Shown piece after piece: positions 61,500 to 64,000 of a DNA stretch of 64,000 bases (its first letter is position 1; the number at the start of each line of letters is the position of its first letter). Source of the stretch: Syntrophobacterales bacterium (GTDB lineage: Bacteria; Desulfobacterota; Desulfobaccia; Desulfobaccales; 0-14-0-80-60-11). Under the pieces are notes generated by a model. That model was not told where the DNA came from. It did no database searches and saw only the letters and a list, made by a program, of their open reading frames with translations. The translations under genes and the position numbers were made by a program. The stretch is from the NCBI GenBank assembly GCA_023512475.1, contig JAILZL010000004.1, forward strand, positions 12,528 through 76,527, given 5' to 3'.

Positions 61500-64000
61500 A
61501 TGCTGACCGAGTTTGTCCATCACCTCCGGGAGTCTGAGGATCTGCGGGATATCCTGGTGTATTACCGCTACGAGGAGCCCCGGCCGGTGCAGTATTACGC
61601 CGGTGAGGCGGGGTTGCCCCCGGAGCTCTGGCAGGCCCTGCGCCGGCTGGGGATCGAGCGCCTCTACCGCCACCAGGGGGAGGCCCTGGAGGCGGTGGCC
61701 CGGGGGGAACACGTGCTGGTGGCCACCCCCACCGCCAGCGGCAAGACCCTGATTTACAACCTGCCGGTGGTGGCGGACTTCCTGGCCGATCCCCAGGGGC
61801 ATGCGCTGTATCTCTTCCCCCTCAAGGCCTTGGAGCAGGACCAGCTTAAGGCCCTCAGGGAGCTGGAGGCGGCCCTGCCCCGGCCCGGTCTCAGCGCCGC
61901 CATCTTTGACGGGGACACCCCTCCGGCGGCGCGCCAGGCCCTCAAGGCCAAGCCGCCCCGGGTGCTCATCAGCAATCCCGACATGCTGCACCTGGGGCTT
62001 TTGCCCTTCCACGACGCCTGGGCCGGATTTTTCCGGGGGCTGAAATATGTGGTCATTGACGAGGTGCACACCTACCGGGGCATCCTGGGCAGCCACATGG
62101 CCCAGGTCCTGCGGCGCCTTAGGCGGCTCTGCGCCCATTACGGGGTCCAACCCCGCTTTCTCATGTTTTCCGCCACCATCAACGAGCCAGGAGACTTCAT
62201 CCGGCAGCTCACCGGGCTCCAGGTGCGGGTCATCACGGAGAGCGGCGCCCCCCAGTCCGGCCGGCACTTCCTGTTTCTCAACCCGCCGGAGGGGGCCGCG
62301 GCCACCGCCGCCCGCCTCTTCGCCCAAGCCATCCGCCGCAATCTGGCCACCATCTGTTTCACCCAGGGCCGCAAGCTCACCGAGCTCATCCACCTGTGGG
62401 CCCTGCGCCAGGTGCCGGAGCTGCGGCGCTACATCAGCTCCTACCGGGCGGGCTTTCTCCCCGAGGAGCGCCGGGAGATCGAGGGCCGGCTGGCCAGCGG
62501 CAGGCTCCGGGGGGTGATCTCCACCAGCGCCCTGGAGATGGGCATTGACATCGGCGGACTGGACGTCTGCCTCCTGGTGGGCTACCCCGGCACCATGGTC
62601 ACCGCCCTGCAGCGCATCGGCCGGGTGGGGCGCCAGGGCCGGGACTGCCTGGTGGTGCTGGTGGCCCAGCCCGACGCCCTGGACCAGTACTTCATGAAAT
62701 ATCCGGAGCAGTTCTTCGCCCGGCCCCTGGAGTGCGCCGTGGTGGACCCCGACAACCCGGTGGTGGTGGCGGCCCACCTGCCCTGCGCCGCCCAGGAGCT
62801 GCCCTTGCACCGGGAGCGGGAGGTCCACTTCGATCTTGCCGCCCATGCCCCCGAGGTGGAAAAACTCCTTCATCAGGGCCGTCTTTTGGCCACCCTGGAC
62901 GGCCGCACCCTGCTCGCCCGGGAGCGCTTCCCCCACAAACAGGTGAATATCCGGGGGGTAGGCGAGAGCTTCGCCATCTTCCAGCGGGGCAGGAAGCGGC
63001 CCATCGGCCATGTGGACGGGCATCGCGCCTTAAGGGAGTGCCACCCCGGCGCCATCTATCTCCACAAGGCCCACACCTTTGCGGTGGAGGACCTGGATCT
63101 GCAGCGCCGCAACGTCCATGTCTCCCCGGTGGAGCCCCACTACTACACCCGCATCCAGACGGACAAGGACACCGAAATCCTGGAGGTGAAGGAGAGCCGG
63201 CAGGTGGCGGGCTTTCTGGCCCACACCGGCCGTCTCAAGGTGACGGAGCGCTTCCTGGCCTACGAGAAGCGGCGCCTGCCGGGCCAGGAGCTTCTGGGGG
63301 TGGTGCCCCTGGAGCTGCCGCCCCAGGTCTTTGAGACCGTGGGCGTCTGGCTGGAGATCCCCGACCCGGTCAAGGCCGCGGTCAGCGCCCAGGGCCTCCA
63401 CTTCATGGGGGGCATCCACGCCCTGGAGCACGCCCTCATCAGCATGTTCCCCCTCTTTGCCCTGGCGGACCGCTACGACATCGGCGGCATCGCCCACCCG
63501 GCGCACCCCCAGGTGGGGCGGGCGGCCGTGTTCATCTACGACGGCTATCCCGGCGGCGTGGGCCTGGCGGCCCGGGCCTTCCGCATCCTGGAGGAGCTCC
63601 TGAGGCGCACCCGGGAGATGATCAACGACTGCCCCTGCGAGGAAGGCTGTCCCTCCTGCATCCACTCCCCCAAATGCGGCTCCGGCAACAAACCCCTGGA
63701 CAAACAGGCGGCCTATGAGATCGCCTCCCTGCTCCTGGGAGAGGAGCCCCGGATGGAGCCTCCCGCCCCCCTGGCGGCCGAGCCCCCGGCCCCCGCCCCG
63801 GTGACGGCGGCCCCGGAGGAGACCCTCCCCTGGCTGGCCCGGCGCCGGGTGGGCTTCCTGGACCTGGAGACCTGCTGCTCCGCCGAGGAGGTGGGCGGCT
63901 GGGAGCGCTGCCACCATATGGGCGTCTCCCTGGCCGTCCTGGTGGAGACCGCGCCTGAGCGCCTCCGCGTGTATCGGGAAGGAGACCTGGAGCGCCTCTG
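61500..64000 (+). CDS. DEAD/DEAH-box helicase with C-terminal DUF1998/MZB Cys cluster (MrfA/YprA-like), open at the window end and continuing into an exonuclease-like segment
   Basis: My own translation from ATG 61500: [15 protein letters not shown]...[33 protein letters not shown] (Walker A), [11 protein letters not shown] (DEVH), GRVGRQG (motif VI), [25 protein letters not shown] (4-Cys). A Pro/Ala linker and ...[18 protein letters not shown]... then follow, with no stop before nt 64000. This ORF is absent from the ORF track because it is open-ended. Confidence 0.85.
   Translation, partial: [833 protein letters not shown]

Follow-up and report, generated by a model that had tools for sequence, protein, structure and literature searches.

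The DNA considered here is a stretch of 64,000 nucleotides (nt), referred to as the window, from the assembly GCA_023512475.1 of a Syntrophobacterales bacterium (contig JAILZL010000004.1, positions 12,528 to 76,527 of the forward strand), and all positions given below are counted from its first letter. The right-hand end of the window holds the greater part of a gene that, as the analysis confirmed, encodes one long protein in which a helicase of the MrfA/YprA type is joined to a 3'-5' exonuclease (Table 1). In Bacillus subtilis, MrfA is a 3'-5' DNA helicase and MrfB a 3'-5' DNA exonuclease (10.1101/2025.09.15.676423, citing the primary work; for the polarity of MrfB see also PMC11194089), and the two are epistatic and interact (10.1101/426304).

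Reading frame of the fusion gene

The ATG at position 61500 is the first start codon downstream of an in-frame stop located 8 codons before, and translation of the forward strand from there to position 64000 gives 833 codons with no stop among them. The first-pass annotation of this DNA had read the frame as open from this ATG through a Pro/Ala linker into a second domain, with a full superfamily 2 (SF2) helicase of MrfA/YprA type and a four-cysteine module ahead of it; all the motif strings that it quoted, that of the linker included, are present, and its figure of about 50 amino acids (aa) for the part of the second domain inside the window is close to the ~57 aa counted. In a window with a G+C content of 68% a long open frame is by itself weak evidence, and the frame is taken as real because of its homology, namely the Pfam domains, the match to 6ZNP, the structure of B. 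subtilis MrfA (E 1e-149), and full-length homologues numbering over 100. Two open reading frames (ORFs) on the reverse strand, 61458-63023 (521 aa) and 63030-63917 (295 aa), overlap the helicase gene, as expected of shadow ORFs at 68% G+C; no support was found for either of them as a gene.

The best database match (P0001, 965 aa) is 99% identical; one JGI metagenome and two Logan runs, independent of each other, supplied the contigs that encode it. Compared as DNA with the final 601 nt of the window, two near-identical loci (L001 and L002) differ by 5 substitutions and have no indel; both remain open for 396 nt more after the window ends, up to a TGA in the same frame, which gives a whole product of 965 aa with the active-site motifs included. 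The same 965-aa protein is encoded at a further locus (L003), and all three of these independent metagenome contigs, of ~99% identity, keep the frame through the Pro/Ala linker. A missed stop or a frameshift in the linker, which the first-pass annotation had left as a possibility, is excluded as far as the comparison of sequences allows without the window's own continuation, because the near-identical contigs align without an indel, the frame is kept and the length of the tether is nearly constant across the homologues (see below).

Table 1. Features at the right-hand end of the window and their coordinates.
Feature	Residues (aa)	Position	Strand	Basis and remarks
Fusion gene, 5' part		61500..64000	+	2501 nt, 833 codons; 132 more codons and the stop follow outside the window
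RecA1 / DEAD domain	57-228	61668..62183	+	PF00270, 99.7 bits; Walker A TPTASGKT, DEVH
RecA2 / Helicase_C domain	279-380	62334..62639	+	PF00271, 49 bits; motif VI just after
Winged-helix domain, HRQ1/MrfA type (WHD_HRQ1)	415-486	62742..62957	+	PF22982, 45 bits
OB-fold and beta-sheet connector	~487-641	62958..63422	+	full-length 6ZNP alignment; long beta-strands in the AlphaFold2 model
MZB / DUF1998 zinc-binding domain	642-721	63423..63662	+	PF09369, 88 bits
Pro/Ala-rich linker	~746-776	63735..63827	+	predicted disordered; local model confidence (pLDDT) <50 for aa 750-773
DEDDy 3'-5' exonuclease, N-terminal ~57 aa	777-833 (of ~777-965)	63828..64000	+	predicted; Exo I FLDLET; homologue motifs, AlphaFold2, Foldseek
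357-aa ORF	357 in total	60342..61415	+	weak LAS/Peptidase_M15_4-like C-terminus (SNHRLGLALD ... DWAHLD); no family match above threshold

The C-terminal exonuclease domain

The last ~185 aa of the protein make up a compact domain, which ends ~40 aa past its Exo III motif. The window itself holds the two acidic residues of Exo I, D788 (nt 63861-63863) and E790 (nt 63867-63869), and the remaining catalytic positions, D852 of Exo II and Y920 and D924 of Exo III, lie beyond it. The five residues (D17, E19, D81, Y149 and D153 when counted within the domain) are invariant in 45 domain sequences, down to 44% identity, and in the full-length alignment as well. The motifs DxE (Exo I), NxxxFD (Exo II) and Yx3D (Exo III) follow the DEDDy pattern, and Exo III reads Y-C-x-x-D across 209 domains with only a few exceptions. 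In Pfam, the C-terminal domain of P0001 reaches 23.9 bits and its relatives 24.1-35.2 bits with PF13482 (RNase_H_2; gathering cutoff 22), PF01612 (DNA_pol_A_exo1) is also matched with up to 28 bits, and PF10108 more weakly; the 103-aa tail present in the window gave no Pfam match, full-length homologues being needed for this assignment.

At the level of the fold, phmmer and profile searches of the domain against PDB sequences returned no meaningful match. An AlphaFold2 model built from the 45-sequence alignment has a pLDDT of 95.5 and a predicted template modeling (pTM) score of 0.91, and shows the order beta1-beta2-beta3-alphaA-beta4-alphaB-beta5-alphaC with Exo I, II and III and the Y-x3-D motif in place. 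When this model was compared with the PDB by Foldseek, the 3'-5' proofreading domains of archaeal PolB, RB69 gp43 and T7 DNA polymerase came out on top, all with a probability of 1.00 and a query template modeling score of at most 0.62. On these grounds, the C-terminal domain is predicted to be an RNase-H-fold (DnaQ-like) DEDDy 3'-5' exonuclease with an intact active site, and the first-pass suggestion of an Exo I-like start of a DEDD-type exonuclease is borne out alike by motifs, Pfam, the model and Foldseek.

The helicase part

The best match by far to the N-terminal part among the PDB sequences is B. subtilis MrfA/YprA (6ZNP), aligned over aa 3-723 of the fusion protein and aa 9-732 of MrfA. 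The SF2 core carries Walker A, DExH and motif VI, all invariant in 32 homologues, and the four-cysteine MZB/DUF1998 domain is preceded by a winged-helix (WH) domain and an OB-connector (CON) region, collinear with 6ZNP (domain names OB and connector as in PMC7797055). The cysteine cluster, C711, C713, C717 and C720 (and C726), reaches nt 63677, and all five cysteines are invariant in the full-length alignment. Membership in the MrfA/YprA (DUF1998) family of SF2 helicases is well supported at the sequence level, because the Pfam domains and the collinear 6ZNP alignment point to it together; the best NCBIfam model is TIGR03817, over aa 26-746, with a score below its cutoff. By analogy with B. 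subtilis MrfA (PMC7797055), we infer that this part would act as a 3'-5' DNA helicase or translocase.

Compared with MrfA (YprA; 6ZNP, 6ZNQ and 6ZNS), the helicase part thus aligns end to end, in the same order RecA1, RecA2, WH, OB, CON and four-Cys MZB and with intact SF2 motifs. The fusion protein differs from MrfA in its ~230 extra C-terminal residues, in a score under the TIGR03817 cutoff and in its host, a Thermodesulfobacteriota / Desulfobaccales-type lineage instead of a Firmicute.

Linker and distribution of the fusion

The distance between the zinc module and Exo I is 50-57 aa in 116 of the 119 full-length homologues, and the linker sequence itself is variable. In the full-length AlphaFold2 model (pLDDT 77, pTM 0.62) the linker is disordered and the exonuclease well folded. 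A search with the 833-aa fragment retrieved more than 100 clusters of 960-990 aa, with 100% query coverage and 63-99% identity, whose source names are Desulfobacca acetoxidans, Desulfobaccales, Syntrophales, Thermodesulfobacteriota and 'Deltaproteobacteria', and throughout the clade the fusion gene is near-universal and in synteny. To judge from these homologues, the fusion is the rule in Desulfobaccales and related Thermodesulfobacteriota.

The fusion architecture is already known, though uncharacterized: helicases of the MrfA type fused to MrfB/YprB homologues have been mentioned by Burby & Simmons (bioRxiv 10.1101/426304, Fig. 6 legend; 2018/2019) and likewise in a 2025 survey of the YprA family (bioRxiv 10.1101/2025.09.15.676423). 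The protein described here shares with those fusions the joining of an MrfA-type helicase to an exonuclease deemed an MrfB homologue, and the repair branch; the two papers only mention them, so that the comparison is one of descriptions and not of DEDDy mini-domain sequences. What is new here is the fusion as the apparent rule in a lineage, the minimal DEDDy module distinct from Bacillus MrfB and the conserved length of the tether. The gain is incremental, because the fusion had already been mentioned and nothing in the gene neighborhood suggests a new system.

Gene neighborhood

Upstream of the fusion gene, the window contains a Sua5/YrdC gene, an M23 peptidase gene, a gene for a heavy-metal P-type ATPase and the 357-aa ORF, and in the near-identical contigs the fusion gene is followed by genes for a peroxiredoxin, a Usp protein, an AsnC-type regulator and a radical-SAM protein. 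The peroxiredoxin-Usp pair is kept in a lineage at 76% identity. In a Desulfobacca-like contig, whose copy of the fusion gene (65% identity) is listed by NCBI under Desulfobacca acetoxidans, only 32 nt separate the stop of that gene from the start of uvrC, an adjacency that suggests a link to excision repair, one not seen in the window's own lineage. This uvrC, with GIY-YIG and UvrC domains, is located at 7966-9918 of L091 and at 4384-6336 of L092.

A sigma-70-like site lies at 60307-60335, upstream of the 357-aa ORF, and this ORF may be co-transcribed with the helicase, its link to the helicase being uncertain. A homologue of 57% identity is placed likewise at the Desulfobacca-like locus L091, upstream of the fusion gene, and none is present at L093 and L094.

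No methyltransferase, PLD nuclease, DrmB or other defense partner was found in the neighborhoods of the four lineages examined. The PADLOC models BrxH, DruE, DrmA and DpdJ give partial matches of at most 149 bits, which cover the generic SF2 core only. With neither partner genes nor a full-length helicase model match, the locus does not have the make-up of the YprA-family defense systems DISARM, Druantia, Dpd, ARMADA, BRIGADE and TALON. Its context, with housekeeping or stress genes as neighbors, is that of a housekeeping gene and agrees with what the 2025 survey (10.1101/2025.09.15.676423) describes for the repair branch of the family.

Proposed mechanism

With a probability of about 0.75, the product is a single-chain helicase-nuclease, in which an MrfA/YprA SF2 helicase, a disordered tether of ~30 residues and a compact DEDDy exonuclease would serve housekeeping DNA-damage repair and not phage defense. 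Of this reading, the analysis shows the architecture of the domains, intact catalytic motifs, the fold, a conserved fusion and the genes around it. If B. subtilis MrfAB and the polarity of both activities are taken as a guide to the DNA substrate, the polarity, the coupling and the biological role, the helicase would load at a 3' single-stranded end or at a nick on the damaged strand and translocate in the 3'->5' direction, the 3' end emerging behind it would be digested by the tethered exonuclease, and the stretch bearing the lesion would in this way be removed, leaving a gap for repair synthesis.

In principle, such a mechanism resembles the arrangement of WRN or that of Ski2/Mtr4 and the exosome. 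WRN combines in one chain a RecQ 3'-5' helicase and a DEDDy 3'-5' exonuclease of the PF01612 type, a family that the fusion exonuclease also touches. An SF2 helicase and a DEDD exonuclease likewise share one polypeptide in WRN and in Staphylococcus aureus DinG, which has an N-terminal exonuclease (PMC12345164). The helicase of those proteins is of the RecQ or DinG kind instead of the MrfA/YprA kind, and their exonuclease is N-terminal, whereas it is C-terminal in the fusion protein. The fusion also shows that the repair branch of the YprA family, as the defense branch does, makes use of C-terminal nuclease fusions.

Relation to MrfB and alternative explanations

For the comparison with MrfB, 80 Bacillales mrfA loci were collected and 49 downstream MrfB proteins extracted from them. 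Bacillus MrfB (416 aa) scores 138 bits with PF13482, contains TPR-like repeats and carries the motifs DTET, NGKAFD and H-x3-D, i.e., the DEDDh pattern, in agreement with its published assignment (H258; PMC11194089). The fusion exonuclease shares with MrfB (YprB; 8UN9) the association with MrfA, here covalent, the metal-dependent DEDD 3'-5' exonuclease fold with its four acidic residues, a PF13482 score above the gathering cutoff, the position of the fifth catalytic residue four before the last Asp, on the long helix alpha-C, and the PolB proofreading domains as nearest structures. MrfB is a separate protein of 413-416 aa with an N-terminal extension of ~100 aa, a C-terminal TPR region and a His as fifth residue, whereas the fusion domain is ~185 aa long, covalently joined and devoid of both the extension and the TPR, with an invariant Tyr (Y920) in place of the His. 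The TPR region is not universal among MrfB proteins, since that of Pseudomonas aeruginosa also lacks it (10.1101/426304).

Several observations weigh against the repair helicase-nuclease proposed above. Only 57 aa of the exonuclease domain lie inside the window, the remainder being inferred from 99%-identical contigs instead of from this genome, and the TIGR03817 score of the helicase part, 735 bits, is under the cutoff of 874 bits. The full-length AlphaFold2 model, with its pTM of 0.62, does not place the exonuclease on the helicase with confidence, the adjacency of uvrC is seen in one lineage only, and DEDDy enzymes include RNases such as RNase D and NrnC, so that an RNA substrate is possible. 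As for MrfB, hmmsearch profiles link the fusion exonuclease to the Bacillales proteins with less than 10 bits, hhalign against the 49 proteins puts Exo I and Exo II in register with a probability of 2.8% (E 0.016), the exonuclease profile finds no PDB chain, MrfB 8UN9 included, and 8UN9 is absent from the top 50 Foldseek matches. The C-terminal domain would work like MrfB, yet its orthology with Bacillus MrfB is not demonstrated, because it is DEDDy, has neither TPR nor N-terminal extension, and reaches only a marginal PF13482 score and the hhalign probability just given; the similarity is at the level of motifs. Of the MrfA-MrfB fusion that the first-pass annotation had considered possible, the architecture, MrfA plus a DEDD exonuclease, has held, and a close kinship with Bacillus MrfB has not.

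This leaves room for a different history, in which the exonuclease was recruited independently of Bacillus MrfB from a distinct small DEDDy family, giving by convergence a WRN-like helicase-exonuclease, possibly with a role other than the repair of mitomycin-type adducts (for instance 3'-end resection, or the processing of replication or recombination intermediates). The lack of a significant profile-profile link to the Bacillales proteins, the near-equal scores for PF13482, PF01612 and PF10108, the Tyr for His and the missing TPR and extension would all agree with it, as would the occurrence of the same domain alone beside an HD-domain gene and with other fusion partners, and the failure of distant MrfAB homologues to complement in B. 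subtilis (Burby & Simmons, 10.1101/426304). The domain is nevertheless still over the PF13482 gathering threshold, hhalign does set Exo I and II in register with MrfB, the structures nearest to MrfB itself are DEDDy PolB proofreading domains (PMC11194089), the neighborhood that Foldseek gives here too, and the 2025 survey treats the fused forms as MrfB/YprB homologues (10.1101/2025.09.15.676423), so that we regard this alternative, including its divergent role, as unlikely. Somewhat less doubtful, and still only tentative, is the narrower proposal that a distinct compact DEDDy family (about 4,300 clusters at 50% identity) was joined to MrfA independently of the DEDDh-TPR MrfB, with the tether of 50-57 residues reporting a fixed geometry between the DNA exit of the helicase and the nuclease site. 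If true, this would offer a natural single-chain model of MrfA-MrfB cooperation. Both structural papers (PMC7797055; PMC11194089) describe the interface between MrfA and MrfB as unknown, and a minimal, TPR-less fusion with a constant linker could serve as a single-chain construct for structural and single-molecule work on UvrABC-independent excision.

Two further explanations depart more widely from the proposed repair enzyme. An anti-phage helicase-nuclease, akin to the YprA-family proteins with C-terminal nuclease domains of Druantia, ARMADA and TALON, is suggested by such helicases being typical of defense systems (10.1101/2025.09.15.676423), by the partial PADLOC matches and by the fusion of exonuclease relatives to the phage Gp157 domain. 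Those PADLOC matches stay on the core and reach at most 149 bits, as against a full-length match of 503 bits to MrfA, the neighbors in four lineages (P-type ATPase, peptidase, peroxiredoxin, Usp, uvrC) include no defense partner, the gene is syntenic and near-universal, unlike patchy defense islands, and the survey just cited puts MrfB-associated and MrfB-fused helicases in the repair branch. The anti-phage idea, raised in the first-pass annotation, thus finds no support in the neighborhood and is very improbable. The least probable explanation, to which we give hardly any weight, is that of two separate genes, mrfA and an mrfB-like exonuclease, with the read-through arising from an error of sequencing or assembly within the GC-rich linker. 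It can draw on four loci (L007, L088, L089 and L090) in which a helicase ORF overlaps a separate exonuclease ORF; all these split contigs come from one assembly series (ERZ250394xx-ERZ250395xx), in which the helicase, an integrase and other genes are broken too, whereas the window matches three independent contigs (from JGI and two Logan runs) without any indel in the linker, and the more than 100 clusters all hold the frame over differing linker sequences.

Other occurrences of the exonuclease domain

An exhaustive search of 1.84 billion cluster representatives with the exonuclease profile gave 4,262 clusters at E <= 1e-3, 590 of them at E <= 1e-30. Among the best 150 clusters, the domain is found at the C-terminus of proteins of ~920-1180 aa, i.e., as fusions, in many fragments from short contigs, in true stand-alone proteins of ~180 aa and in fusions with either a Siphovirus Gp157 domain or a C-terminal region of unknown nature.

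The split operons at L007 and L088-L090 had also been considered as Rosetta-stone evidence and were rejected as such, since the assemblies fragment many genes and frameshift artifacts are likelier. ERZ25039461, ERZ25039502, ERZ25039551 and ERZ25039597 contain overlapping broken ORFs, look indel-rich and could mislead surveys of fused versus split genes.

A stand-alone relative of 219 aa (P0214, ~52% identical) has a start codon that abuts the stop of an HD/HD_assoc (dGTPase-like) gene; the pair is present on 11 contigs (L004 4795-6660, also L005 and L006), with a different, DEAH/HrpA-like helicase a few kb away. In P0347, probably phage-encoded, the DEDDy domain is N-terminal to the Siphovirus Gp157 domain, and P0348 is a close relative by sequence. 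In P0328 an unannotated stretch of ~360 aa comes after the DEDDy domain.

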